Virus record (IMG/VR): IMGVR_UViG_2541047755_000009
Direction: 5' to 3' (one strand)
DNA: 40,602 bases
Source: a virus
Lineage: Duplodnaviria > Heunggongvirae > Uroviricota > Caudoviricetes
Part shown: positions 2,000-29,248 of the stretch, piece after piece
Layout: each line of letters starts with the position of its first letter
Position numbering within the stretch: the stretch's first letter is position 1
The notes under the pieces: generated by a model
What the model saw: the letters and a program-made list of their open reading frames with translations, nothing else
What the model was told of the DNA's origin: nothing
The model's database searches: none
Position numbers and translations under genes: made by a program

Positions 2000-2482
2000 C
2001 TATCTGGTCAGGGTGTCGTACTGTTTTTCACAGACTCTTCCGGCTTCGGCTGCCCGGTCAGCATACTCTGCCAGTTGTCTGTTTCTCTCGAGAGATTTAC
2101 TGAGCACGTCGGCAAGCAAAACTCCGGTGTCTGCGGCTGACGTCCCAGCGCCGACAATGGCGTTATACTGCCTGAGCTGCTCACGGATGGCAACGAGCTG
2201 TTGCTGCAACCGGCCAGCGCGAGCGGCAGCATCAAGAGCATCATTGCGCGCCTGGTCGATCCTCTGCTGCGCTTCACGTTCATTGATCGCTTTCTCCTGT
2301 TCGTAGTGCTGACGAATTCTCTCATCTTCGGTTTTGCGGTCTTCTTTCGCCTGCGCATACCCGGCGTCGTACTGACGACTGCCGTGTACACTCCAGGCAA
2401 CAACTCCTGATATGACCAGAACAGCAAGCACCGCCATGATAATCAACTGTTTCCGGTATGCTTTTACGAATGCCCAGATCAT
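2000..2482 (-). CDS. Rz: i-spanin Rz
   Basis: N-terminal TM helix then Gln/Ala/Arg-rich coiled coil; ATG overlaps the endolysin stop (ATGA); last gene of lysis cassette. Confidence 0.8.
2008..2244 (-). CDS. Rz1: o-spanin Rz1 lipoprotein embedded in the +1 frame of Rz
   Basis: alternate frame inside Rz encodes [13 protein letters not shown] (lipobox LAGC) followed by a Pro/Ser-rich peptide; start codon chosen by eye. Confidence 0.65.
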   Translation of the reverse strand: MMLLMLPLALAGCSNSSLPSVSSSGSITPLSALGRQPQTPEFCLPTCSVNLSRETDNWQSMLTGQPKPEESVKNSTTP

Positions 2483-3108
2483 ACCGCCAGCACCTTACTG
2501 GCATTGATGTATCGCGCGCGCCGGTCGTCGATGCCGTTCCGGCCACCATTGATAATCAGAGTTACACGTGCAATATCGCCGGTATACTTCATGCATCCTT
2601 TGCTGGCAAAGAACCACGCCGCGCTACGAGCCGCGTATTCGTCCTGCGCCAGCAGTTCAGGACTCTCCAGCAGGTCAACCTTAAGACCGTTTCCACAGTC
2701 ACGATAGTTATTCAAACCGGTAACCTGGATAAGCCCGCGCCCACGGTAGTTCCAGCCATCACCAGGGGCATTGTTCCCCATGCGTTTGCTGTACACCAGA
2801 TTGGCAATCGCTCTCTGGCGCTCAAGTGGCAATGGTGGTTCGCCTGCACGTCGCCCCAATGCGTTGGCCTGTCCCTGAGTGAGACGCCCAGCCCGAACAA
2901 AGTTAGCCAGTCCGCTGACGCTGTAGTTGAAATTCTCCTGCAACCGGGTGAAGCCTCCAGACTCATGCCCGACCTGAGCAATAAACATAGCCTGATCTTC
3001 TGGTTTGCTGATACCAAACTCTTTCATCGCAGAAGTTATATGCGAGAACCAGCGTGCGGCCAGTGCCTCGCTGATACCAGCAGCTCGCTGGAATTGTTTA
3101 ATCTCCAT
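2479..3108 (-). CDS. endolysin, glycoside hydrolase family 19 (chitinase-like)
   Basis: GH19 signatures [10 protein letters not shown] and [15 protein letters not shown]; GAGG RBS 8 nt upstream; no N-terminal TM segment so not a SAR endolysin. Confidence 0.85.
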
Positions 3109-3406
3109 GTTTAGACCTCGATACTTTGAAAATTTGAACGACGTTACCGCGCGTTTTAATAACCGCAGCTAGCATGACAGCGTTGATAATGACCTCAGAT
3201 AAATCCACAGCCATTGGCGTACGTAACCAGATTGCATAGGCGACACGAACAGGAATACTGGCCGCAGCAACAATCAGGAAATAAGCAAGCCATCCTCCCC
3301 ACCTTCGGTGTTGAGAGCCGTTACGCCGGAATGTGACAACGCGAATTGCTATGCCAGTGCAAATAACTGCATTGGTGATAAGCAAAAAAAACTCATGCGT
3401 TACCAT
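3098..3406 (-). CDS. lysis-cassette membrane protein (holin or antiholin candidate)
   Basis: 102 aa with about 3 hydrophobic helices; GGGGAGAAAAG RBS; overlaps both the upstream gene end and the endolysin start. Confidence 0.6.
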
Positions 3407-3797
3407 CGTCTTTTCTCCCCGGAATTAACTCGCGTGGATTATCGGAACGGTGATAGAGCCATATACCAATACGCACAGCGACAATTGCTGACACGAATGC
3501 GCCTGCAGAGAAAACAATCCCTTTTTCAAAAGAGTCCTGCGTGATGGTAGGGATCAGGCTGGCTATGCCGATAAGAATTGATGCTGCTGGTTTGTAAAAG
3601 AGAAGGCCGCAAAGAAAGCTGAGCATCGACAGGAGCACCCGGCGACGGATGGGGTACTCTACTGCAGAGGTAACAAAAATTACCGCTCCAGCCAAAGCAC
3701 CCAAAGCAACCTCAGGAGGAACTCCTGCTATCACCGCCGCCAGAGAACTCATGCTAAGCCACTGATTTAAAGTTTCACTGGTTAGTTGAGCTGACAT
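3393..3797 (-). CDS. multi-TM membrane protein (holin candidate)
   Basis: about 134 aa from ATG at 3797 with GGTGGA RBS (track ORF begins at GTG 3806); about 4 predicted TM helices; immediately upstream of the lysis genes. Confidence 0.55.
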   Translation of the reverse strand: MSAQLTSETLNQWLSMSSLAAVIAGVPPEVALGALAGAVIFVTSAVEYPIRRRVLLSMLSFLCGLLFYKPAASILIGIASLIPTITQDSFEKGIVFSAGAFVSAIVAVRIGIWLYHRSDNPRELIPGRKDDGNA

Positions 3798-3999
3798 GTT
3801 TTCCACCGTTTATATGCATAACAACCTCCTGAACAGTAAAGCATTACGCATAATAAACCATTTATGGTTTTTTGTTACTTTAACATCGTCAATTCCCTGT
3901 TTTTCATGCCGAGAATAAAGCTCACCTTTTACATGACTCTGAAGAAACAAACAGTGAAGAGCAGGTTGAATACCGCACCATTTAATGGCGCGGTAGCAG

Positions 4000-4296
4000 T
4001 CAAATAGAGAAATAAACACAAAAACAAAAAACAACAGGAACAGCAAAATCCAACAGACTTCCCACATCCCACACGCGTGGATCAAAACCTCCCCACCACG
4101 GCATGTTGATACGTTTCCCTTTCCCAAACTTTTCTATCCAGCGATATTCTGCCTGGGTGTGTTCACGCGCAATGAAGAACGTACAACCGGCTATCGCACC
4201 GTAAGCCCAGTTTCCGGTAAAAATACCAACCAGTACCTGAGCCACAAAAGCGCAAAGCGAGTGAAGAAATGGAGTGACATCAATGCTCTTAATCAT
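4000..4296 (-). CDS. small membrane protein translationally coupled to the tailspike (function unknown)
   Basis: ATG overlaps the tailspike stop (tcATGA); GGGGAAG RBS; 98 aa with 2-3 hydrophobic helices; AT-rich. Confidence 0.55.
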   Translation of the reverse strand: MIKSIDVTPFLHSLCAFVAQVLVGIFTGNWAYGAIAGCTFFIAREHTQAEYRWIEKFGKGKRINMPWWGGFDPRVWDVGSLLDFAVPVVFCFCVYFSI

Positions 4297-6482
4297 GAAA
4301 CTTCCCCATTGGTTGAAAATATGGCTCCTCCAACGCCAAGTGTATTTCGTGTTGTGCTCAACCTCAGAGGGCTGGAGTCAGAATTAGAATATCCTGTAGC
4401 AGAAATAAAAGATCCTCCACTAATAGTCAACTGCGGAACATCGGCTATATCTGAATAAGTTCTGTCAGCAACAGTATTATTTATAGCCACATATGATCCA
4501 AAAAAACTTCTTATTGTTTGGTTTTTAACTTTACTTCCTTCAATGGTTATCCTACTACCACAGTCGGCAATAAATCCTGAATCTGCATCCAGCGTTGCAT
4601 TCATAAAAGAAGCTTCAGATCTCTCTACATCAATCCATCTAATATCTTTTGTGGGATTTGCACCAAATACATGACAAATATTAGAGTTAAACCTTACACC
4701 ATCTTGGAGGTGCATTAATTTTTTTATATCTGTACCCCATAGCCTTGGAAAATTAACAGATGCTCCTGCATGGCAATCAAATCCCAGCTCAGCCCCTGAG
4801 ATATCTACAGCCTTTCCTGAAATAACAGCACCAGTGTCTGCATTAACGGCTGTTCCACAATTGCGCATATCATTACCAGCAACATCAACGCAACCCGCAC
4901 CATCAATACGCACACCAAGTGCACATCCATAAAAACCTTTTTCAATATTTGGTTCAAGGACTTTACCACTTGTTTCTGCATCACTTTCTTCAACGTCATG
5001 TCGTCTTGCATCAACATATGCTGTATGAATGCAGGTTAATCCACGATATGAGCAATGTATAGTTTTATGGTCGCGTATATTAACATTTGAACCATCTCTT
5101 ACATTCCATCCTATATAACAATAGCTTGCACTTGACCCCTGAAAATCTGCTTTAACATTATAAATACAATTAACTGACGCAACCGTACTCTCTGTGCACC
5201 GTTCAAACTTGCTTACAGGCATTGATGCCTTGACATTATTTACCAGTTGCAGGGAAGAGTATCTGCTATAAGAAAAATCACATACGTAATACCCTTCTGG
5301 CATATATGCAGCAACACTTTCCTCATCAGGAGCACATCCGGTATGATATGCACTAATTTTTGCACCAAAACTACCATGAATTCCAACGTAGAACTTTCGA
5401 GCACCTGAATACGGATAGAAATTAAGTTCAGCTTTTTGAGTTACAATAAATGCACAAACATCGCTATCATCTCTATTTTCTTCGATCTGAATAGCAAATA
5501 CAGGACTTTTTGCTGCATCGCAAATGTAAAATAAATACTTGTATTCGTAATACGTTCTAACGATTTTAGTAAACAAACGAGTGTCAGAGAAAACCACTGA
5601 GTCTTCTGATGTTATTTTAATCCAAGACAAATCAACACCTGAACTGAATTCAATTTGATAGTTGATAATATGCCCGGTCTTAATTCTTATTTCGCAGAAA
5701 GCATTACCACCATCCCACATAGGTCTCATTGACTGGGCTGCAATGATTGCATCTTTGAGTGTAGGGTAATCACCCCATTCGCCAACAGTAATAACAAAAG
5801 TATAATATGAGTTAAAAACAGCGGCATTTTTGCCTTTGGATATCAACTCCTTAATCATAAAAATATTATCTTCGTAATCACAAGGAGAAATTATATCCCT
5901 CATTTTGCTTTGAAATGTTCGTTGTCTTGCCCCGCTTCCTGACGGTATAAACCAACCAAAACCACCAACAACCCCGGCGATTGCAGCATCGACATAATTA
6001 CGCATTGAGCGATTATTTACAGCGTCCTGCTCAAATGATGGATCTGCAAGGTTAGAAATTTTGTTTTGCTTTGCATCGTAATATTTTGCAAGCAAAGATG
6101 GTTTCATCAATGCACGTCTGAACCACCCAAAACATCGCTGGATCAGCATCGTCAGGTAGTCAAATGCATCTTCATGAACTTCGGGGAAAAATTTTCCCTG
6201 ATTGCGAAGATCAGTCTCCTGCACCACATCAAGCACACGCTCTATCGTAATTCGCCAGCCAGCAGCAAGCGGCGACGGGAGAACCACTTCACCGCCACTA
6301 TAAGTGCCCGCTCCAGTTACCTTATAACCGGTATCCAGAACCAATTCTGTTACGTTCCCGTTCAGGTCAGACACCTGAACAACCAGGTCGGTTTTTTTGA
6401 AAATACGGAAGGTATACGGAAATGATGTCGTAACGCCGTTACCGGTGTATTCGTTGTGGTCAACTTCGGTTGAGACCGTCAT
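4293..6482 (-). CDS. tailspike with epsilon15-gp20-like N-terminal particle-binding domain
   Basis: N-terminus MTVSTEVDHNEYTGNGVTTSFPYTFRIFKK...HEDAFDYLTMLIQ matches the conserved epsilon15-type tailspike head-binding module as I recall it; long Gly/Asn/Ser/Thr-rich C-terminal part typical of beta-helix receptor-binding domains. Confidence 0.8.
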   Translation of the reverse strand: MTVSTEVDHNEYTGNGVTTSFPYTFRIFKKTDLVVQVSDLNGNVTELVLDTGYKVTGAGTYSGGEVVLPSPLAAGWRITIERVLDVVQETDLRNQGKFFPEVHEDAFDYLTMLIQRCFGWFRRALMKPSLLAKYYDAKQNKISNLADPSFEQDAVNNRSMRNYVDAAIAGVVGGFGWFIPSGSGARQRTFQSKMRDIISPCDYEDNIFMIKELISKGKNAAVFNSYYTFVITVGEWGDYPTLKDAIIAAQSMRPMWDGGNAFCEIRIKTGHIINYQIEFSSGVDLSWIKITSEDSVVFSDTRLFTKIVRTYYEYKYLFYICDAAKSPVFAIQIEENRDDSDVCAFIVTQKAELNFYPYSGARKFYVGIHGSFGAKISAYHTGCAPDEESVAAYMPEGYYVCDFSYSRYSSLQLVNNVKASMPVSKFERCTESTVASVNCIYNVKADFQGSSASYCYIGWNVRDGSNVNIRDHKTIHCSYRGLTCIHTAYVDARRHDVEESDAETSGKVLEPNIEKGFYGCALGVRIDGAGCVDVAGNDMRNCGTAVNADTGAVISGKAVDISGAELGFDCHAGASVNFPRLWGTDIKKLMHLQDGVRFNSNICHVFGANPTKDIRWIDVERSEASFMNATLDADSGFIADCGSRITIEGSKVKNQTIRSFFGSYVAINNTVADRTYSDIADVPQLTISGGSFISATGYSNSDSSPLRLSTTRNTLGVGGAIFSTNGEVS

Positions 6483-6585: not shown

Positions 6586-6602
6586 ATTACCTTTCAGGTA
6601 AT
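6586..6602. promoter_or_regulatory. operator-like palindrome ATTACC-TTTCA-GGTAAT (site A)
   Basis: perfect 6+5+6 inverted repeat abutting a TTGCAA -35-like hexamer upstream of the 6678 gene. Confidence 0.55.
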
Positions 6603-6982: not shown

Positions 6983-7248
6983 TTTACATCGCACTCCTCT
7001 TGTGCCATAGTAATCGGGCACTGGCAAAATCCAGTGCCGGGATTGGCGTCCCGAGTTACTACAGAGGCACATATGCCGCATAAGCGGTTTTTTTTATGTG
7101 TAAAGCGCACCTATTCTATGGTGGGCTGTGTGGGGGCACCGAAAGGTGCGCCGGGTCCTTTGTAGCCGGTTACGCCAACCCTGCACAGTTCACCACCAAC
7201 CGATTGGCGTCGGTAGTGGTGATTAACCTAACTACAAAGGTGATCACT

Positions 7249-7935
7249 ATGACTGCTAACGTAACCCCATCTGTTTTTCATTTTGAATCAGAAGCAACCA
7301 TTCGAGCCATTGTTATTGATGGAAATCCTTGGTTTGTTGCCAAAGACGTTATTAAAGCTCTTCAACTGACAAACCCCACTATGTCAATAAAATCTCTTGA
7401 TGATGATGAAAGGGCTAAATTTAACTTAGGCCGTCAAGGCGAAACCAATATTATCAACGAGTCAGGCCTCTACACACTGATCCTCCGCTGCCGCGATGCA
7501 GTAACACCAGGCACTATCCCCTACCGCTTTCGCAAATGGGTTACAGGTGAGGTTCTTCCTCAGATCCGCCGCACCGGAAGTTACATTAAAAACTCGCTCC
7601 CGCAGGAAGAACGCATAAAGATGGTTGCCGACCAGGTTGCAAACGCCACAGCATCAGCAGTGATGCAGGCAATGAAGATAGAGAACAAAACCTACAGCGC
7701 CCCACTGAAGCCCGGCTACCGCAGCCTGATTCATTCGCCGTCTGGTGTTCTCGGCCTGACGGAGAACTCACTGCTGATGAATTTGCTGAACCAGTTACAG
7801 GAAGACGGGCATGACGTATCGGGCGCGGCGGCGGAGCTGACTACCATGTTCTGCTACATCGTCGGTGTGAGCAAATGCCTGCGTGATATCCAGACGCACG
7901 CGGAGTACATCAACGACAAGGCAGGGTTCTTCTGA
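7249..7935 (+). CDS. phage antirepressor with Bro-N domain
   Basis: Bro-N signature IRAIVIDGNPWFVAKDVIKALQL; AAGGTGA RBS before ATG 7249; C-terminal domain shared with the 6678 gene. Confidence 0.8.
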   Translation: MTANVTPSVFHFESEATIRAIVIDGNPWFVAKDVIKALQLTNPTMSIKSLDDDERAKFNLGRQGETNIINESGLYTLILRCRDAVTPGTIPYRFRKWVTGEVLPQIRRTGSYIKNSLPQEERIKMVADQVANATASAVMQAMKIENKTYSAPLKPGYRSLIHSPSGVLGLTENSLLMNLLNQLQEDGHDVSGAAAELTTMFCYIVGVSKCLRDIQTHAEYINDKAGFF

Positions 7936-8007: not shown

Positions 8008-8024
8008 ATTACCTTAAAGGTAAA
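8008..8024. promoter_or_regulatory. operator-like palindrome ATTACC-TTAAA-GGTAAA (site B) with promoter-like TTGCAG / TACTAT hexamers
   Basis: sits between a putative -10 and the GAGGAGG RBS of the 8050 gene. Confidence 0.5.
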
Positions 8025-8049: not shown

Positions 8050-8259
8050 ATGGGATTTTGGTTCGCTCGTACAAAAACGAGGGATAATGCACCCAGCCCT
8101 CAGGCAAAAAATGCAGAAGTTCCGGCGTCAGCGCAGGTTAACAAGCGTGGTGGTGTGTATATCTCATCACAGCAAATTTCTGAGCTTCCTGAGGTTAAGG
8201 AGATGCGTCGTCTCGCTGCTGCAATCGTTAAACAGGATCTTGCCACTGTAAGGAAATAG
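8050..8259 (+). CDS. hypothetical small hydrophilic protein, first gene of accessory cassette
   Basis: strong RBS GAGGAGG then ATG; 69 aa; stop TAG overlaps the GTG start of the next gene (taGTG). Confidence 0.6.
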   Translation: MGFWFARTKTRDNAPSPQAKNAEVPASAQVNKRGGVYISSQQISELPEVKEMRRLAAAIVKQDLATVRK

Positions 8260-9125
8260 TGTTGTTAGCTCTTCTAATTATCCCCATTCTGGTTAGTGGT
8301 TATATTATGATAACCGCTAACCAGTATCATTATTTCCGTTTATACCGACATGAAGGCCAGCTTCTTTATATGAAAGTAGCTGCATTAGGTACATATTGCC
8401 TTGTTGCTTCGGTAATAATTGCCGCATTTATAAAATATAAATATCCTGATTTTCACCTAGTTCACGATATGGTGGAAACTTTTAATGTAACGTCAAAACC
8501 AGAAACAGATAGAATTTACATGTGGCTGCTTCTTCTCTCAGCCACATCCATTTGCTTCTCTTTGTGTTATGTGTCTGTTGTGTGGGTGAAAGATTTTCTT
8601 CTTGGTTGTTTTTATAAACGTGATATTTATGAGCAAAAAACAGAGGCAATGAAGGCCAGAGTACTGCGAAAAACTTACTCGCAAGGTTCTTTAGACTTAC
8701 TATTGCTTGATGCTATTGAATCGGATCCTAAACGACCAATGCTGATTACTTTATCATCAAACAAAGTGTATGTTGGAATAATAAATGGTTCTGGTGAACC
8801 AACGGAAAATCAGGGTCCGCATCAGCACATATCTTTTGTTCCTTTAATGTCAGGATACAGGAACAAAGACAACTTATCTGTCACATTCACTAATGCTTAT
8901 CCAGGAGAAATACAGGTCAAGCGGACTGCAGCAATAAGAGGAATTAGCAGAAAGAAAGTGCCAGGACTTGAGATCATGGTGTCTATTGACGAAATAAGTT
9001 ATATATCATGGTTTGATTTTGAAGTATATAAAGCAACAAATAACAAAGTAGAATCCAGGGGGCACGTTATTCGTGTTACCAAAAATGGAAGAAATATATA
9101 TCAAAGAAATAGCAAAAAAGAATAG
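8259..9125 (+). CDS. membrane-anchored protein, 3 N-terminal TM helices plus about 180-aa soluble domain (unknown function; exclusion/defense candidate)
   Basis: 288 aa; GTG start coupled to upstream stop; visibly AT-rich codon usage unlike the neighbouring phage genes; intrinsic terminator directly downstream. Confidence 0.65.
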   Translation: MLLALLIIPILVSGYIMITANQYHYFRLYRHEGQLLYMKVAALGTYCLVASVIIAAFIKYKYPDFHLVHDMVETFNVTSKPETDRIYMWLLLLSATSICFSLCYVSVVWVKDFLLGCFYKRDIYEQKTEAMKARVLRKTYSQGSLDLLLLDAIESDPKRPMLITLSSNKVYVGIINGSGEPTENQGPHQHISFVPLMSGYRNKDNLSVTFTNAYPGEIQVKRTAAIRGISRKKVPGLEIMVSIDEISYISWFDFEVYKATNNKVESRGHVIRVTKNGRNIYQRNSKKE

Positions 9126-9146
9126 CCCGCGCTGCGGGCTTTTTTG
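9125..9146 (+). terminator. rho-independent terminator of the accessory cassette
   Basis: GCCCGC-gct-GCGGGC followed by TTTTTTG. Confidence 0.7.
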
Positions 9147-9217
9147 TGGACGAAACAAAAGCCAGTGCTACACTCATTGACGCCACATTGAGGTGGCTTA
9201 TAGATGGAAATTTCACA

Positions 9218-9379
9218 ATGAAAAAAGCATTTGCTGCACTGTTCGTTTTGTTGTCTCTGGTAGCTTCAACTCAGGCCTTTGCCGGTCGTTGTCAGCACGA
9301 CAGCGATACTGCCGCTGACGGCTCCCGCTGCGGTGGGCGTTCTGCGGATTCCCGCCCGGGTGGCGGTGGCATTCGTTAA
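9218..9379 (+). CDS. small secreted Cys-containing peptide (hypothetical)
   Basis: MKKAFAALFVLLSLVASTQAFA signal peptide then about 30 aa Gly/Arg/Asp-rich; start chosen at the internal ATG of track ORF 9146-9379. Confidence 0.35.
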   Translation: MKKAFAALFVLLSLVASTQAFAGRCQHDSDTAADGSRCGGRSADSRPGGGGIR

Positions 9380-9401
9380 AAACAAGGCCGCGAAAGCGGC
9401 C
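9380..9401 (-). terminator. terminator at the end of the minus-strand late operon
   Basis: GGCCGC-tttc-GCGGCC followed on the minus strand by TTGTTTTT. Confidence 0.6.
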
Positions 9402-9402
9402 T

Positions 9403-9414
9403 GTGACATGTCAC
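9403..9414. repeat. 12-bp perfect palindrome GTGACATGTCAC, copy 1 of 3
   Basis: identical 12-mer also at 26972-26983 and 29237-29248. Confidence 0.8.
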
Positions 9415-9707
9415 GTCCCTTTTCTGAATGATAGCCATTCGAAAAATGATGACATTCCACCGCAGACAATAGCAAAGATGATCCCACCAAAGAAGAGAAG
9501 GCCAGCCTGCCACCACTCCCACCGCCATACATCCACAGCGCCAACCATACCAACAATCGCTCCAACAAATGGAATATAGCTCACGATGAAAGCAATGGGG
9601 GCTGCAATTATCCAGTGCAATCCCCACCATGATTCAAGCCCAGCCATAATTGCTGCCAACTGAAAAAGACCAACGACGATATAAACAATGAATCCTATAG
9701 CTTGCAT
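9411..9707 (-). CDS. Trp-rich small membrane protein (about 3 TM helices), function unknown
   Basis: 98 aa; ATG start; last gene of the minus-strand operon before the terminator. Confidence 0.55.
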   Translation of the reverse strand: MQAIGFIVYIVVGLFQLAAIMAGLESWWGLHWIIAAPIAFIVSYIPFVGAIVGMVGAVDVWRWEWWQAGLLFFGGIIFAIVCGGMSSFFEWLSFRKGT

Positions 9708-9719
9708 GTAGTCACCTAT

Positions 9720-9893
9720 TTACCCAGTAAAAATAAGAGGCCTCCCCTCAATAAGGCTTGCAACAAGAACTACTCCCTGCACAACAAAGATGAACCAGCA
9801 AATAGCTTGAGTCTGAGGGTTAAGAAAATATTTGTAGCGGTCAATAAATAACAATACACCAGAAATTATCACACTCAAAATAATTAAAAACAC
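9720..9893 (-). CDS. possible 57-aa hydrophobic peptide (GTG start)
   Basis: not in ORF track; AAGGAAG motif 4 nt before GTG; two hydrophobic segments; directly precedes the 9411-9707 gene. Confidence 0.3.
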   Translation of the reverse strand: MFLIILSVIISGVLLFIDRYKYFLNPQTQAICWFIFVVQGVVLVASLIEGRPLIFTG

Positions 9894-9902
9894 AACACTT
9901 CC

Positions 9903-12377
9903 TTATTGCGGAGTGACATCCTGAGGTCGCCACCAGTATGTCTGGTTAAACTCTTTCTTCGAACGTTGCTCCATTTTACGCAAATAGCCTGGTGAAAAAT
10001 ACTCCTGCATCTGGTTAAAGATCATGTGATCGAGAGCCGCCTTCAAGTACCAGAGATTCGCACCAGGCATCAAACCTTTCCCCAGCTTCACCAGATCACC
10101 ACCAGTCTGCTCACTCTTCCCTTCCACAGCATTTAACGGTATGCCCTGAGCAATCTTCACTACGTCATCAACTAGACCAGCTACCGGGCCAAGCATCGAC
10201 GCCAGCGCGCCGCTTCCGTACCTAGTGTGATCTGACAATAAAAAGTCACCGTAAAGGCCAAGACCACCACCTTTCAGTAGAGCACCAAGCCAGAATTTTG
10301 CGGCATCTTCTCCTGTCATCTCTCGAGGATTACGACCAGACGCAAGGTCGTTAAGTTGTTGCGACAAAGCGCCAAGAATGGTCGTACTGGCAATAAACGT
10401 CGCAATATATGCCGCACGCCCACCAGCAGACGGCATACCCATAGCGCGTGACCAGTGACGCATAACAACCGAGATAGGGAACGATTTAAACAGGAAAACA
10501 CTTCTCGTTAATTCACCTTTCCATGTTCCACGCTGAATACCAGAACCGGTTATCAGTTGCTCACGTGCTCCCGGTGTAATAACAGCCATATCAACTTCTT
10601 CAGTTACGGCACCGAGCAGTTTACGCATTGCCTCAAATTTCACGCGTTCAGGCTCACCAAGATGTTTAACTGCTGAATCAGGGATACGCATAATGCTTTC
10701 CGGTGTCAGCATCGTATTATTACCGTTCCCCCAGTCCTCCTGTTGCGCCAACTTCCATACGCTCCAGTCTGTGTCAGTAATCCCTTTGCTTTTCAGGATA
10801 CGAAAATCAGAGTCATCGAGGCGACGAAGGTCTGGTGTCCGTGACACTACTTCTCCCAGGCTTCCCATCATGGTTACGCCATAGGCGCGCTTGTGCGCAT
10901 CTGACCATGCTGTAAGCCCACTGGCACGCATTACCGCCGTTGCAGCCCAACGAGACACAGACGGCCCCATATTATCCATCGCCCAGCGGTTAACGCTGCC
11001 AAGTAGAGATTCCATCGCCAGACCAGCGCGGCGCGCCCGCGCAAGTTCTGTACGGTTCGTTGGGTCCATAGCTTCAAGCTGGTTGCGGAATAACTGGTTC
11101 ATTGGAAGGTTGGTAACCTTCGCAGACAGATACATGGTTCCAAGATCAGAGAACGATGACAGCAACGCGGATCCGAGTCTGCTGGCAACCAGCCAGTTGC
11201 GGATATTGTCAGACCATCGCGCGATGTGCGGATTCGCTACAGGCTGTGTCTTTCCGGAAATAAAGTTGTACAGATTCTCTGTGTTGTTCGCCAGCCGCTC
11301 GACTTTACCGGTTTTACTCGGGTTAGCTGTTGCCGTTTCTGCCTTCACCTGATCAAGAAGAGAGCGGAAAACATGATCGGGGTTTGGACCATATGTTTCC
11401 ACCAGTGCAATATCTTTACTGATACCTTCCAGGTGACCGACCATGATTTCCCATAGAGAGCGATCGCCATAAAGTTGCTGATATTGCAGATAGGAATCTG
11501 CATCTTTGAAATGTATCTGTCGTGATGCATTACCACGGTTAGCACGTGCGCCGGAAATTCGCATTCCGGTATCAGTAAGCTTATTCAGCCCACCAGTAGC
11601 GATCGTGTTATAAGCCTCTCCAAGAAATGCAGACAACTCGGCATCGTTCATCAGTTGTCCATCGGCTCGGGTATAATATTTGCGATCCAGCTTACCTATA
11701 ACATCGCTAACCCATTTATCTTTTGATACCGCCCCAACCTTTTCCATAGAATGATGTTGAGGGATCCCCCAGTTTTCGAGATAGCCAATGTCCCCACCAG
11801 CATCATTAAACCGGCGGCGCAGTAGCTCTGTCACTTCTCTCCACGCCTTAGCACCTTTTCTTGCTTTAGCATTGCCAGTATTTTGCCCCCGCATTTCATA
11901 TACCAGGTCACGTACGCCCGCTTCATCTTCAAACAGACCAAAAAAGCGAGGATCAACTGCTTCGAATGCCTCCTGCAATTGACTCAATGCATAATCACGG
12001 GTGGCTTTTGTTCTGGATTCAACAGAGAGGAAATTCGATTTACCGTCTGCATTAAAAGCAATAGTACGGTTAAGAGCGCCAAGTTTCCCATCAGCCCCTT
12101 GATAGCTATTGATAAATTTATCCAATCTCTGACGTGCGGCTATAGTGAGGGCCACACGACGTTTCTTTAATGCCGCTTCTCGCTGTAATTCTTCAGATGC
12201 CAATTGTGCTGCACGATACAGCCGCTCTGATTCGGAAAGTTGTCGCCACGACATCGGGTCATCACGAGCAATGGAGCGCATATTTCGATAAATGCGGTCT
12301 TCAATGTTCTGTATTTCTCGCGCCGTTAACGTGCGCTGCGCCGCCTGCTGGACCGCTTGTATACATTCCTGTCTCAT
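9903..12377 (-). CDS. large virion protein (internal/ejection or tail protein)
   Basis: 824 aa in the late structural operon; position analogous to podovirus ejection proteins; no motif recognised. Confidence 0.55.
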   Translation of the reverse strand: MRQECIQAVQQAAQRTLTAREIQNIEDRIYRNMRSIARDDPMSWRQLSESERLYRAAQLASEELQREAALKKRRVALTIAARQRLDKFINSYQGADGKLGALNRTIAFNADGKSNFLSVESRTKATRDYALSQLQEAFEAVDPRFFGLFEDEAGVRDLVYEMRGQNTGNAKARKGAKAWREVTELLRRRFNDAGGDIGYLENWGIPQHHSMEKVGAVSKDKWVSDVIGKLDRKYYTRADGQLMNDAELSAFLGEAYNTIATGGLNKLTDTGMRISGARANRGNASRQIHFKDADSYLQYQQLYGDRSLWEIMVGHLEGISKDIALVETYGPNPDHVFRSLLDQVKAETATANPSKTGKVERLANNTENLYNFISGKTQPVANPHIARWSDNIRNWLVASRLGSALLSSFSDLGTMYLSAKVTNLPMNQLFRNQLEAMDPTNRTELARARRAGLAMESLLGSVNRWAMDNMGPSVSRWAATAVMRASGLTAWSDAHKRAYGVTMMGSLGEVVSRTPDLRRLDDSDFRILKSKGITDTDWSVWKLAQQEDWGNGNNTMLTPESIMRIPDSAVKHLGEPERVKFEAMRKLLGAVTEEVDMAVITPGAREQLITGSGIQRGTWKGELTRSVFLFKSFPISVVMRHWSRAMGMPSAGGRAAYIATFIASTTILGALSQQLNDLASGRNPREMTGEDAAKFWLGALLKGGGLGLYGDFLLSDHTRYGSGALASMLGPVAGLVDDVVKIAQGIPLNAVEGKSEQTGGDLVKLGKGLMPGANLWYLKAALDHMIFNQMQEYFSPGYLRKMEQRSKKEFNQTYWWRPQDVTPQ

Positions 12378-12382
12378 TTAAT

Positions 12383-14185
12383 TTAACCTCTCAAGAAACA
12401 CGCCACAGCAACATCAAACAGGCTGGAATCCTGTATTGCCTGCTCACTTTCCCTGTTCGCTTCATCCAGTACTTCACGCGCACTGCGCGATTGTGGATTA
12501 CCATCATCATCCAGCACGGTGATTATCATGTCAGGTGATTCAAGCAGCGAGTCTTCAGCTATACGCAGATCAATATCTCCTGCCGGATCTGCCATCATTT
12601 TTTGTTCTGTCTGTTGCAATATCTTACCGGGCTCAAAAGGAGCTACTTCTTCTGGCGTCCTGACCTCTGCTGTTTTATAGAATGAAACAGCCTGAGCATT
12701 AAGTTCACTTTCTGCCTGCTGTCGTCGTGCCAGTTCTGCTCGAGCTTCAAAAAACTGACCTCCAGGCTCGTGCGGCGCCAACGCGTTACGAGAAAATTCC
12801 AGGCGTTCTTGTGCCTGCCGGATTCGTTGGTCAATATCGCGAAGTCTGGCCTGTTTATCTGATCGAGCACGAGATAAAGCCTTACCGCTACCGGTTGGCT
12901 CTTCTGCAAGAATTTGTGCGCGCTGTTCAGTGAGATTTTCAATAATTCGTTGGCTATTAGCGATTTCAGACTGGTAAACCTTTCTATCGCCACGCGACAA
13001 AAGCTGCGCGGCCTGTTCTTCAAGCAACCGATTTTCTATAGCGCGCGCCGTTACTCCATCATCTACAGATGACAGAGCCTCATTAACTGCCTGAGACAGC
13101 AGACTCTTGCGCCCAGGAATTTCACTGAAAGATGCAGACTCAACAATGCTGGCAACGTCTACAGGTCTCCCCTGGCTAACATCAGACATGGCTTTTCGCA
13201 GAGCCTGAATGTGCGAATTACGCGAAAGCACGTTGATCGGAACGCCGGGAGCAATATCAATTTCAGCATGATGAGCGGCATTCGCCGCCAGTGCAGCATC
13301 AATATCAACTGGTGAAAAATTTGGTGCGCTTGTAGACTCGCCGCGAGAGTTAATAAATCTGCCGACACCACCAAACGCCACCCCAAGAACAGCATCAATA
13401 GCAATTGCCTGTCGATCCAACACATCATACTGGTTAGCCATTTCGCTATAGCCACCATCACGAAGCGTTTTTGCAGTAAGCCCACGCTGTGCCATACCGA
13501 ACGCAATATTTGTACCTGCGGCATAGGCAATATCTGGCGTTGCACGTACTGCTGTTGCTGCGGCGCGTCGCACTGAACTTTCACCCGTCCGCGCAAGCTG
13601 AGCCGCCACACCTTCCGCCAGCGCACCACCAGCACGTAACCCGAGGCTCATAGGGATCAGTGTTCCGGCACCAGCAGTAATACCCTGCACTAATCCCGCT
13701 TCCTGCGCCGTCCTGAAATCAACACCCTGTGCTGTCAACCGTTCAAACTCAGAAAAACCCTGTAGAGAAGTTACCGCCGCAGCACCTCCGACCGGACCAC
13801 CGAGCGTTGTACCGACAACAGCCTGCCCGCCCATATCGAACAACCCATAAAGGACCTGCCCGGCGGTTCCGGTTGTCGCGGCATCAGGCGTCAGCCGCTT
13901 AACCTGCTGCTCTGCTAGTTTTCTCTGCTCAGCAATGTATGAAACTGAAGTGTCATTGAGCGAGGTGTTTTCGTTAACAAGCTGAGCAATCGGGGATACG
14001 ATTTTATCCATCCCTGCCCATAGCAACTGATCTGGCTTTGCCACCAGCCCGGAGTACAAACCAGACAATGCCGCTCCTACAGCATTGTCGAAAAAACCAA
14101 CATCGCTGTTAAAGCCAACTGGATTTGATGCTGCTTCGTCAAGCTGCTGATTCTGGTTTACTGGATTAAGGCCAAAGTAACTCAT
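12383..14185 (-). CDS. virion protein (ejection/tail), Ala/Gly-rich
   Basis: 600 aa; start overlaps the upstream stop (ATGA); late operon. Confidence 0.55.
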   Translation of the reverse strand: MSYFGLNPVNQNQQLDEAASNPVGFNSDVGFFDNAVGAALSGLYSGLVAKPDQLLWAGMDKIVSPIAQLVNENTSLNDTSVSYIAEQRKLAEQQVKRLTPDAATTGTAGQVLYGLFDMGGQAVVGTTLGGPVGGAAAVTSLQGFSEFERLTAQGVDFRTAQEAGLVQGITAGAGTLIPMSLGLRAGGALAEGVAAQLARTGESSVRRAAATAVRATPDIAYAAGTNIAFGMAQRGLTAKTLRDGGYSEMANQYDVLDRQAIAIDAVLGVAFGGVGRFINSRGESTSAPNFSPVDIDAALAANAAHHAEIDIAPGVPINVLSRNSHIQALRKAMSDVSQGRPVDVASIVESASFSEIPGRKSLLSQAVNEALSSVDDGVTARAIENRLLEEQAAQLLSRGDRKVYQSEIANSQRIIENLTEQRAQILAEEPTGSGKALSRARSDKQARLRDIDQRIRQAQERLEFSRNALAPHEPGGQFFEARAELARRQQAESELNAQAVSFYKTAEVRTPEEVAPFEPGKILQQTEQKMMADPAGDIDLRIAEDSLLESPDMIITVLDDDGNPQSRSAREVLDEANRESEQAIQDSSLFDVAVACFLRG

Positions 14186-26595: not shown

Positions 26596-26967
26596 ATGAG
26601 TGACAAAGACATTGAATCTGAAATTCAGGCTAAAGGTTTAGCCGCGCCGCGCGTTACGCCAGACCATATCGAGAGCATTATTGCTCAGGAGGCATATTTC
26701 ACAGCAGAAGATGGTGTCTTTGGCGTAGCCATAAAAGCGAAACATACTGGCGGAGAGGTAAACTACCAGCCGCACGAATCACTTTCTCTGCTGACATTCT
26801 GCGTTCTGGTGCTGCGCAACGGCTTCACCGTCACCGGAGAGAGCGCCTGTGCAAGCCCGGAAAACTTTGATGCGGAAATTGGTCGGAAGATTGCCCGGCA
26901 GAATGCTGTAAACAAAATCTGGATGCTTGAAGGTTACTTGCTGAAGCAGAAGTTAAGCGAGCAATAA
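26596..26967 (+). CDS. conserved phage protein, tentatively Gp49 / Sf6-gene-66-like
   Basis: 123 aa; AAGGTGAG RBS; family assignment from memory only. Confidence 0.4.
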   Translation: MSDKDIESEIQAKGLAAPRVTPDHIESIIAQEAYFTAEDGVFGVAIKAKHTGGEVNYQPHESLSLLTFCVLVLRNGFTVTGESACASPENFDAEIGRKIARQNAVNKIWMLEGYLLKQKLSEQ

Positions 26968-26971
26968 CACC

Positions 26972-26983
26972 GTGACATGTCAC
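26972..26983. repeat. 12-bp perfect palindrome GTGACATGTCAC, copy 2 of 3
   Basis: between the convergent ends of the 26596 gene and the large terminase gene. Confidence 0.8.
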
Positions 26984-29236: not shown

Positions 29237-29248
29237 GTGACATGTCAC
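29237..29248. repeat. 12-bp perfect palindrome GTGACATGTCAC, copy 3 of 3
   Basis: immediately upstream of the small terminase gene. Confidence 0.8.

Follow-up and report, generated by a model that had tools for sequence, protein, structure and literature searches.

The DNA analysed here is a window of 40,602 nucleotides (the whole stretch under study; IMG/VR virus record IMGVR_UViG_2541047755_000009) that represents a temperate podophage or prophage of Escherichia coli from the genus Uetakevirus (epsilon15/phiV10-like), and our subject is a group of three small genes at the distal junction of its late operon, termed p53, p98 and p57 after the lengths of their products. According to the layout of the annotated phiV10 and epsilon15 maps, the late operon lies on the minus strand in the order terminase, portal, capsid, tail and three large internal-virion or ejection proteins (862, 600 and 824 amino acids, aa). 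The last of these, the 824-aa gene (9903-12377, minus strand), is the homologue of epsilon15 gp17 and phiV10 p20 (PHROG 684, 'virion structural protein') and lies directly upstream of p57 and p98. An earlier note, made from the sequence alone, had listed three open reading frames (ORFs) at the junction, all of which are present: a possible 57-aa hydrophobic ORF with a GTG start and two hydrophobic segments (p57; 9720-9893, minus strand), a 98-aa Trp-rich three-helix ORF with 8 Trp (8.2%) and three hydrophobic segments (p98; 9411-9707, minus strand), and, facing them, a 53-aa plus-strand ORF with a hydrophobic N-terminus and two Cys (p53; 9218-9379). To the left of the late operon, there is a variable plus-strand cluster, consisting of a Bro-N/antirepressor-like gene (7096-7935) and a 288-aa gene (8259-9125), followed by the tail-fibre gene. 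The whole region is syntenic with phiV10 and epsilon15; positions 8200-12400 share 98.7-99.5% identity with Escherichia phages HEMP4 and phiv142-3, and from 9357 onward the DNA is 98.6% identical to phiV10.

Within the 2.1 kb around the junction, 22 ORFs of at least 30 aa were found. Because chance ORFs of such size are frequent, selection was tested on the three ORFs. Compared with diverged copies in Klebsiella, Cronobacter, Pectobacterium and other loci, the ratio of nonsynonymous to synonymous substitution rates (dN/dS) was 0.04-0.13 for p53, 0.02-0.16 for p98 and 0.20 for p57, and Fisher tests of the synonymous excess gave p = 1e-8, 2e-10 and 4e-5, respectively. These data indicate that p53, p98 and p57 are genes under purifying selection, p57 being less secure than the other two and probably real. 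Together with the position of the genes, the selection tests bear out the expectation of the earlier note that small secreted or membrane-protein genes stand at the end of the ejection operon. None of the three products matched a virion component, an identity that the note had also considered, and none matched a holin, defence or toxin family in Pfam, NCBIfam, PADLOC or PHROG. Pfam, NCBIfam and PADLOC yielded only signal-peptide-level or sub-threshold matches (MarB, HxsA3, the N-terminus of Spackle, and Hol44), and sequence searches of the PDB with family profiles returned no match.

The three genes assort independently. p53 occurs without p98 in phages TL-2011b and EC.W1-9, a Klebsiella phage, Pectobacterium and Rahnella prophages and a 3.4-kb plasmid, p98 occurs without p53 in Cronobacter, Yersinia and Salmonella prophages, and each of p53, p57 and p98 is found without the others in several genomes, indicating that they are not a pair. 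Their guanine-plus-cytosine (GC) contents are also distinct, that of p53 being 0.60 against 0.34-0.40 in the adjoining sequence and that of p57 being 0.36-0.38. Moreover, a presence/absence test showed that phiV10 lacks p53, p57 and p98 although its flanking 824-aa gene is 98.6% identical in DNA to that of the window up to the stop codon, beyond which the small genes are wholly different. This abrupt change at the stop codon, together with the distinct GC contents, shows that the slot downstream of the last ejection gene changes its occupant in modular fashion. We therefore favour, at roughly even confidence, the interpretation that the junction consists of three separately acquired small genes acting on the cell envelope rather than one system. 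The selection on the genes, their independent assortment, the conserved promoter-like and terminator elements and the slot, which is filled in every relative examined, are direct observations in its support. The arrangement is ordinary moron and mosaic accessory architecture, and the three proteins are already in databases as hypotheticals.

p53 corresponds to RefSeq WP_000708858 and matched PHROG 14503 with an E-value of 2.3e-40 over residues 1-53 of the 53-position profile. Its family comprises 57 homologue clusters under the database name 'transmembrane anchored protein'. The 53-aa pre-peptide is predicted to consist of a signal peptide, MKKAFAALFVLLSLVASTQAFA, and a 31-aa mature peptide with a Cys25-x12-Cys38 arrangement. 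In a rule-based reading, the N-terminus is made of MKK, a 13-residue hydrophobic core and A-F-A before G23, and this layout is kept family-wide. In the family alignment the mature part is near-invariant and the signal part varies freely; across 24 members from several phyla, the invariant residues are C25, D30, A32, D34-G-S-R-C38, G39, R41 and G48-G49. The lipobox pattern [LVI][ASTVI][GAS]C is absent before Cys25, which is preceded by F-A-G-R (R at -1; N or S in the enterobacterial homologues), although a separate lipobox further upstream is present in a few distant members from cyanobacteria. The combination of a variable n-h-c segment, an invariant mature part and no lipobox predicts that p53 is exported by Sec, cleaved and closed into a 31-aa peptide with a disulphide loop. 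A point against this reading is the AlphaFold2 (AF2) model, which is confident for the signal helix only and gives the mature peptide no confident fold (predicted local distance difference test, pLDDT, ~46-63). A longer 77-aa version of p53 from an upstream GTG start was rejected, since MKK is where the homologues begin, divergence and indels mark the sequence before it, and the extension contains the predicted promoter.

The N-terminus of p53 could instead be an uncleaved signal anchor that holds the 31-aa tail on the periplasmic side of the inner membrane, in keeping with the names given by NCBI (quoted above) and PHROG ('membrane associated protein') and with the AF2 model, which makes residues 2-22 one helix. 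However, the classical n-h-c layout, in which small residues at -3/-1 recur while the rest varies, is the pattern of a cleaved signal, and there is no lipobox, with R or N at -1 of the Cys; we thus regard anchoring as unlikely. The invariant D-[RT]-A-[AS]-D-G-S-R-C resembles the Excalibur calcium-binding motif DxDxDGxxCE (Pfam PF05901), a resemblance that we take as a lead and not as membership. The D..DG..C spacing is alike and both would be extracytoplasmic, whereas two acidic ligand positions are replaced in p53 (A and G), and no match of p53 to Pfam Excalibur was obtained at E up to 1.

A DNA alignment of eight p53 copies from different phages showed third-position variation within the ORF and conserved non-coding elements outside it. 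Upstream, an intrinsic terminator follows the 288-aa gene (9124-9140, plus strand; terminator-like on both strands, -14.4 kcal/mol, z -2.6), which is kept in TL-2011b and EC.W1-9 despite different upstream genes and is predicted to insulate p53 from the repressor-controlled genes before it. Then comes a predicted sigma-70 promoter (9147-9174, plus strand) with the -35 element TGGACG (9147-9152), a 16-nucleotide (nt) spacer and the extended -10 element TGcTACACT (9166-9174). The predicted -10 is kept as TAAACT, TACAAT or TACGCT at the same aligned position, including in the Klebsiella and Pectobacterium copies; a stricter consensus promoter scan did not list the predicted promoter. At the predicted transcript start, the minimum-energy fold contains a 5' leader stem-loop, GCCAC-ATTGAG-GTGGC (9182-9197, plus strand), whose stem has differently composed counterparts at the same place in Klebsiella (GCCAC/GTGGT), Cronobacter (ACCACC/GGTGGT) and Pectobacterium (CCGC/GCGG), a modest support from few sequences. 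Downstream, a terminator hairpin follows the p53 stop in every context aligned. No repressor-operator motif occurs near the p53 promoter, the nearest being at 8008. Insulated in this way and having its own predicted promoter without a repressor operator, p53 is probably expressed in the lysogen.

These elements point to p53 as a self-contained moron with a predicted promoter and terminator. Morons are independent transcription units inserted between conserved phage genes, for example lambda bor and lom, and the concept stems from HK97/HK022 comparisons. Like them, p53 has a predicted promoter and terminator of its own, is present or absent among near-identical phages, differs from its neighbours in GC content and encodes a predicted envelope-directed product. 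Unlike Bor and Lom, it is much smaller and neither a lipoprotein nor an outer-membrane protein, and unlike phage morons, its cassette also occurs on plasmids and its module in non-phage genomes of other phyla. In phiV10, all that is left of p53 is the last ~20 nt, GGCGGAGGCGGCATTCGTTAA, fused to the shared terminator (2998-3023 in the phiV10 locus L001, corresponding to ~9355-9385 in the window). This scar of a deletion or replacement shows that p53 was once present in the phiV10 lineage.

The distribution of p53 is wide. In several unrelated podophages (TL-2011b, EC.W1-9 and a 63-kb Klebsiella phage) it closes the antirepressor-side cluster, it follows the tail genes in a Pectobacterium prophage, the lysis cassette plus a RelB/YafQ pair in an E. 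coli prophage and the Q antiterminator gene in a lambdoid prophage of Rahnella, and it is the sole annotated non-mobilisation gene on a 3.36-kb Klebsiella plasmid. Siphophage prophages are among its carriers. Around one in ten complete E. coli genomes carry p53 through the region described here. A scan of one genome per species located the p53 module in 57 loci, among them loci of Rhizobiales, cyanobacteria, Vibrio, Tolumonas, Rhodoferax and Polyangiaceae; across the 57, it has no recurring neighbour. Examples among loci L046-L089 are Mesorhizobium (L046), Agrobacterium (L064), Anabaena (L067) and Bacteriovorax (L079); the module stands behind signal peptides in Rhizobiales, cyanobacteria, Vibrio, Rhodoferax, Polyangiaceae and Bacteriovorax, and now and then it forms the C-terminal tail of a larger protein, as in a 275-aa Bacteriovorax protein. 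No Pfam or NCBIfam model covers the module. From its sequence relatives, p53 appears to be a stand-alone, widely distributed extracytoplasmic mini-protein.

The presence of p53 far outside phages weighs against a phage-specific role and makes a general envelope role likelier than direct phage exclusion. Such a role, in which p53 binds a conserved periplasmic component or ion and thereby benefits the carrier cell, falls somewhat short of an even chance in our judgement, and direct phage exclusion by p53 is less probable still, at about one chance in four.

p98 closes the late operon as its last cistron, with an AGGTGA Shine-Dalgarno sequence 4 nt before its ATG. It matched PHROG 3075 with an E-value of 1.6e-54 over positions 1-98 of the 98-position profile (accessions WP_001147903/4) and has 52 homologue clusters with identities down to ~48%; a profile search reached 738 representative clusters at E up to 1e-3. 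Its AF2 model (pLDDT 89.7) contains helices at residues 2-28, 32-42, 46-59 and 65-97, which would make three membrane spans with a kink at Pro46. Since the C-termini are basic across the family, the C-terminus is predicted to be cytoplasmic, which would place the conserved Trp-rich WxWxWWQ loop in the periplasm, and the model is consistent with a three-helix inner-membrane protein of N-out/C-in topology. Occasional fusions of the p98 domain to DUF805, RDD, zinc-ribbon or MORN domains gave no functional clue. For phiv142-3, a 118-aa annotation of p98 was dropped in favour of 98 aa on grounds of the kind that decided the start of p53. Homologues of p98 stand right after the last large ejection gene in three podophage architectures, namely Cronobacter Uetakevirus-like prophages, a Yersinia prophage (with 1017-aa and 1130-aa proteins) and a T7-like Salmonella prophage.

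p57 encodes a predicted two-helix membrane protein and was left unannotated by the Prokaryotic Genome Annotation Pipeline (PGAP). Its Shine-Dalgarno sequence, TAAGGAAG, overlaps the stop codon of the 824-aa gene. Its 8 homologue clusters (E. coli, Citrobacter, Salmonella and Enterobacter; 74-96% identity) keep the length and the DRYKYFL loop, a basic loop that is predicted to be cytoplasmic. The copies in Klebsiella phage BUCT711 and in Cronobacter have a TTG start and a GGGGG Shine-Dalgarno sequence, and the BUCT711 copy is of the same length. The gaps between the 824-aa gene and p57 and between p57 and p98 are only 9 and 12 nt, respectively, with Shine-Dalgarno sequences, and epsilon15 gp18 likewise overlaps the gp17 stop. 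No consensus promoter was found upstream of p57 or p98. The short gaps, the Shine-Dalgarno sequences and the absence of a consensus promoter suggest that p57 and p98 belong to the late operon. The scan that gave the p53 promoter also returned a possible internal extended -10 element, TGTGATAAT, inside p57 (9857-9865, minus strand). BUCT711 and Cronobacter retain part of it as TGTGATAGT, but the stretch is coding, and a separate drive of p98 from it would be speculative. A possible internal terminator in the 3' end of p57 (9734-9750, minus strand), a hairpin with a T-run, was rejected, its stem not being kept in BUCT711; it is probably a coding by-product.

p57 might alternatively be non-functional, either a decaying remnant or a mere leader that carries a promoter for p98. 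Its omission by PGAP, the GTG or TTG start, the low GC content, the Cronobacter copy with an in-frame TAG and compensating frameshifts and the extended -10-like TGTGATAAT inside it all fit this explanation. On the other hand, its dN/dS is as low as stated above with BUCT711 as the comparison, its length and frame are kept in 8 clusters across five genera, its strong Shine-Dalgarno sequence is conserved even though the sequence itself changes, the second gene that it precedes in Enterobacter and Salmonella is another one, and its position matches that of the annotated two-helix proteins of phiV10 and epsilon15. Taken together, we consider it improbable that p57 is without function.

Between p98 and p53, the late operon ends in an intrinsic terminator, the G+C-rich hairpin AGGCCGC-GAAA-GCGGCCT (9385-9402, minus strand; -17 to -18 kcal/mol), whose T-tract is the complement of 9377-9384 and overlaps the p53 stop. 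The homologous hairpin is annotated as a terminator in phiV10 and epsilon15. The earlier note had called this hairpin a bidirectional terminator; the hairpin and its minus-strand terminator function are upheld by the sequence, but it is terminator-like on the minus strand only, with the tail TTGTTTTTA, and on the plus strand it is followed by a palindrome and no T-run. With the T-run on one side only, bidirectionality is unsupported, and the hairpin is read as the terminator of the late operon. The palindrome itself, a perfect 12-bp GTGACATGTCAC at 9403-9414, abuts the terminator and overlaps the TGA stop of p98, so that the exact copy described in the note is present but is not strictly intergenic.

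Three exact copies of GTGACATGTCAC occur in the window (9403-9414, 26972-26983 and 29237-29248), compared with 0.08 expected, and copies stand in the same three places in phiV10 and epsilon15, as in all Uetakevirus genomes checked (2142, 19517 and 39612 in epsilon15, L027; 2262 and 19493 in phiV10, L021). Along the transcribed strand, the arrangement is the same at each site, with the gene stop first, then the palindrome and, 0-40 nt further on, the terminator. The genes that the three sites follow are a gp49-like regulator gene before the terminase genes, an antisense phiV10-p03-like gene between terminase and portal, and the gene in the slot after the last ejection gene. At the late-operon end, the palindrome is invariant in 18 related loci from five genera in which the flanks and the terminator stems vary. 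This invariance amid variable surroundings suggests sequence-specific recognition rather than mere RNA pairing, and thus points to a sequence-specific factor that would bind the palindrome. The palindrome resembles the MatP site matS (GTGACRNYGTCAC) but is shorter by one base. The palindrome was also considered as a -35 promoter element and set aside, with only weak -10-like matches at the right distance.

In every Uetakevirus relative examined, the homologue of gp17 is followed by a small hydrophobic membrane protein of two to three helices, and these proteins belong to unrelated families. The occupants of this slot include epsilon15 gp18 (64 aa), phiV10 p21 and SPN1S_0020 (46 aa), Tyrion gp19 (103 aa), a 66-aa protein in Cronobacter, and p57 plus a 92-aa Tyrion-like protein in Enterobacter and Salmonella; all of these listed proteins of relatives have two predicted helices. 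Like epsilon15 gp18, phiV10 p21 and SPN1S_0020, p57 and p98 occupy the slot on the same strand, are coupled to the last ejection gene and are followed by the palindrome and the terminator. In contrast to this shared setting, the proteins themselves are unrelated (21% identity in a forced alignment and no tblastn match), and the slot holds two genes in the window and one in those phages. One slot family, found in Enterobacter (L025, 5187-5465), Salmonella (L026, ~5270-5555) and Tyrion (gp19; L023, 2161-2472), comprises two-helix proteins of ~92-103 aa with a conserved charged C-terminal helix, SLWLKRKKLEE-KRIKEL; it directly follows p57 or the gp17 homologue and is uncalled as a gene in Salmonella L026.

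The earlier note had proposed that small membrane proteins at this position are candidates for superinfection exclusion. SieA of phage P22 is a three-helix inner-membrane exclusion protein whose gene lies directly beside the last ejection gene, 16, and which acts on gp16 and gp20 (PMC10883804). p98 is similar to SieA in being small, in having three predicted helices whose location would be the inner membrane and in the placement of its gene after the ejection genes in four phage architectures; the sieA region lies between the ejection genes and the tailspike and also holds antirepressor genes (PMC10883804), as does that of p98. The slot position, the predicted topology and the SieA-like neighbourhood therefore speak for the proposal by analogy, whereas homology to SieA does not. 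By this analogy, p57 and p98 may interfere with or control phage DNA entry at the step of the ejection conduit, a possibility that we hold only tentatively.

Several points weigh against it. The p98 family profile aligned to P22 SieA in hhalign with a probability of 0.2% over 8 aligned columns, and p98 matched no PADLOC defence model. SieA has 162-164 aa, and its gene converges on the late operon and is transcribed in the prophage from a promoter of its own; p57 and p98, by contrast, run in the direction of the late operon as its last cistrons and have no clear promoter; by position and orientation it is p53, not p98, that holds the sieA-like place. Exclusion needs expression in the lysogen, and no promoter that would serve it was demonstrable for p57 or p98. 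The link to ejection genes is not absolute, as one distant relative of p98 from the profile search has SSB, RecT and replicase genes as neighbours, in a replication/recombination module that belongs to another mobile element. p57 is interrupted by an in-frame TAG in one Cronobacter prophage, where it is a pseudogene. Finally, phiV10 combines a 98.6% identical 824-aa gene with a wholly different small protein, which argues against a specific partnership with this ejection protein.

Another possible function for p98, with or without p57, is that of a late holin-like or lysis-timing protein in the inner membrane. With ~100 aa, three helices, a predicted N-out/C-in topology, a short basic C-terminal tail and probably late expression, p98 is like class I holins such as lambda S, and a weak Pfam match to Phage_holin_5_2 (E 0.027) was obtained. 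It is a gene of the late operon, and in the T7-like Salmonella prophage its homologue has the last ejection gene on one side and the terminase genes on the other, roughly the place of holin gene 17.5 on the T7 map. However, the Phage_holin_5_2 match reached 15.2 bits against a cut-off of 29.2 bits and was found in only two of 28 family members, so that p98 differs from class I holins in having no significant family match. It also has no endolysin neighbour: the canonical lysis cassette of phiV10 and epsilon15 (holin, endolysin and Rz/Rz1) forms a separate cluster after the tail-fibre gene, and its counterpart in the window, located by homology from its place after the tail-fibre and conversion genes in those phages, comprises the ORFs at ~2000-4127. 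Moreover, phiV10 and epsilon15 lack p98. A holin-like function is thus improbable in our view. The weakest proposal, pairing of the convergent genes with a toxin-like peptide as the earlier note had suggested (a membrane toxin with a secreted or antisense-controlled partner or antidote), could draw on the shared 3' hairpin, on small hydrophobic products like those of type I toxins and on the YafO, HicAB and RelB/YafQ systems common in the same variable region of relatives, but it is contradicted by the independent assortment of the genes and by the lack of any recurring neighbour of p53 in 57 genomes, as well as by base composition that differs from gene to gene, the absence of matches to toxin-antitoxin or PADLOC models and the absence of an antisense promoter beyond weak consensus matches, and is very improbable.

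Other features of the window were also recorded. The 288-aa gene (8259-9125, plus strand; PHROG 3630, GC 0.33-0.40) has hydrophobic N-terminal segments, an operator-like site upstream at 8008 and the terminator at 9124-9140 after it. It occupies a cargo position, at which related phages have a YafO toxin, a DUF2335 protein or a HicA/DUF1902 pair, and could, on this evidence, be defence or abortive-infection cargo; it gave no PADLOC match. The repressor-operator motif ATTACC-N5-GGTAAT, which is annotated in the epsilon15 record, has 15 matches in the window at up to 2 mismatches, compared with 1.2 expected, at 6586, 6966, 8008, 25971, 29125, 29143, 32419, 32481, 34427, 34812, 35524 and 35586 and at weaker sites. 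These lie scattered ahead of genes for terminase and tail fibre and of genes on the antirepressor side and in the immunity region, a spread suggesting that the repressor controls many promoters directly. A gene at 26596-26967 (plus strand), located between those for the large terminase subunit and the portal, opposes the late operon; it is the homologue of phiV10 p03 and epsilon15 p50 ('similar to Sf6 gene 66') and has on its flanks a palindrome copy and a hairpin that carries T-runs on either strand. Given this hairpin, late transcription from terminase to portal would need to pass a terminator or restart beyond it. An Rfam scan of 8800-10100 gave chance-level matches only, and a repeat scan of the region returned hairpins and nothing more. 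Literature searches on the protein names, accessions, peptide motif and palindrome found no papers, and the transcriptome of the LF82 'Gally' prophage was set aside as a data source because it concerns a P22-like phage.

From these observations we infer the timing of expression, export and cleavage, topology and all functions in the following model. The late operon would run leftward through the three ejection genes and end with the coupled p57 and p98 cistrons, where transcription would meet the invariant palindrome and the minus-strand intrinsic terminator. p57 and p98 would be expressed together with the late genes, with an internal promoter as a possible second source, and in the inner membrane the two proteins may affect phage DNA entry or exclusion at the level of the ejection conduit, as functional analogues, not homologues, of SieA. 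The convergent p53 moron would be expressed in the lysogen from its own extended -10 promoter without a repressor operator. Its pre-peptide would be exported by Sec, cut after AFA and oxidised to a 31-aa periplasmic peptide with a disulphide loop, which would most likely bind a conserved envelope component or an ion and so serve as a lysogenic-conversion or fitness factor. A more far-reaching proposal is that the mature part of p53 is an unrecognised extracytoplasmic mini-domain, C-x4-D-[RT]-A-[AS]-D-G-S-R-C-G-x-R-x4-[RK]-x-G-G, recruited by phages and plasmids as a carrier-protecting periplasmic factor, for example by binding an envelope component or ion exploited by phages or colicins, and that the palindrome at the three terminators is the site of a dedicated termination factor; we regard this combination as doubtful.

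The junction does not overturn current understanding, and its content is typical mosaic accessory content. What is noteworthy beyond that is the phylum-spanning p53 family, which no model covers, the conserved membrane-protein slot and the signature of palindrome and terminator. Assigning a function to p53 would annotate a widespread, nameless family of mini-proteins, and the palindrome and terminator signature may mark the ends of transcription units in Uetakevirus. If the small membrane proteins do block DNA entry, this would explain the fast turnover of the slot, and the slot would be a general place in which to seek exclusion genes of podophages.

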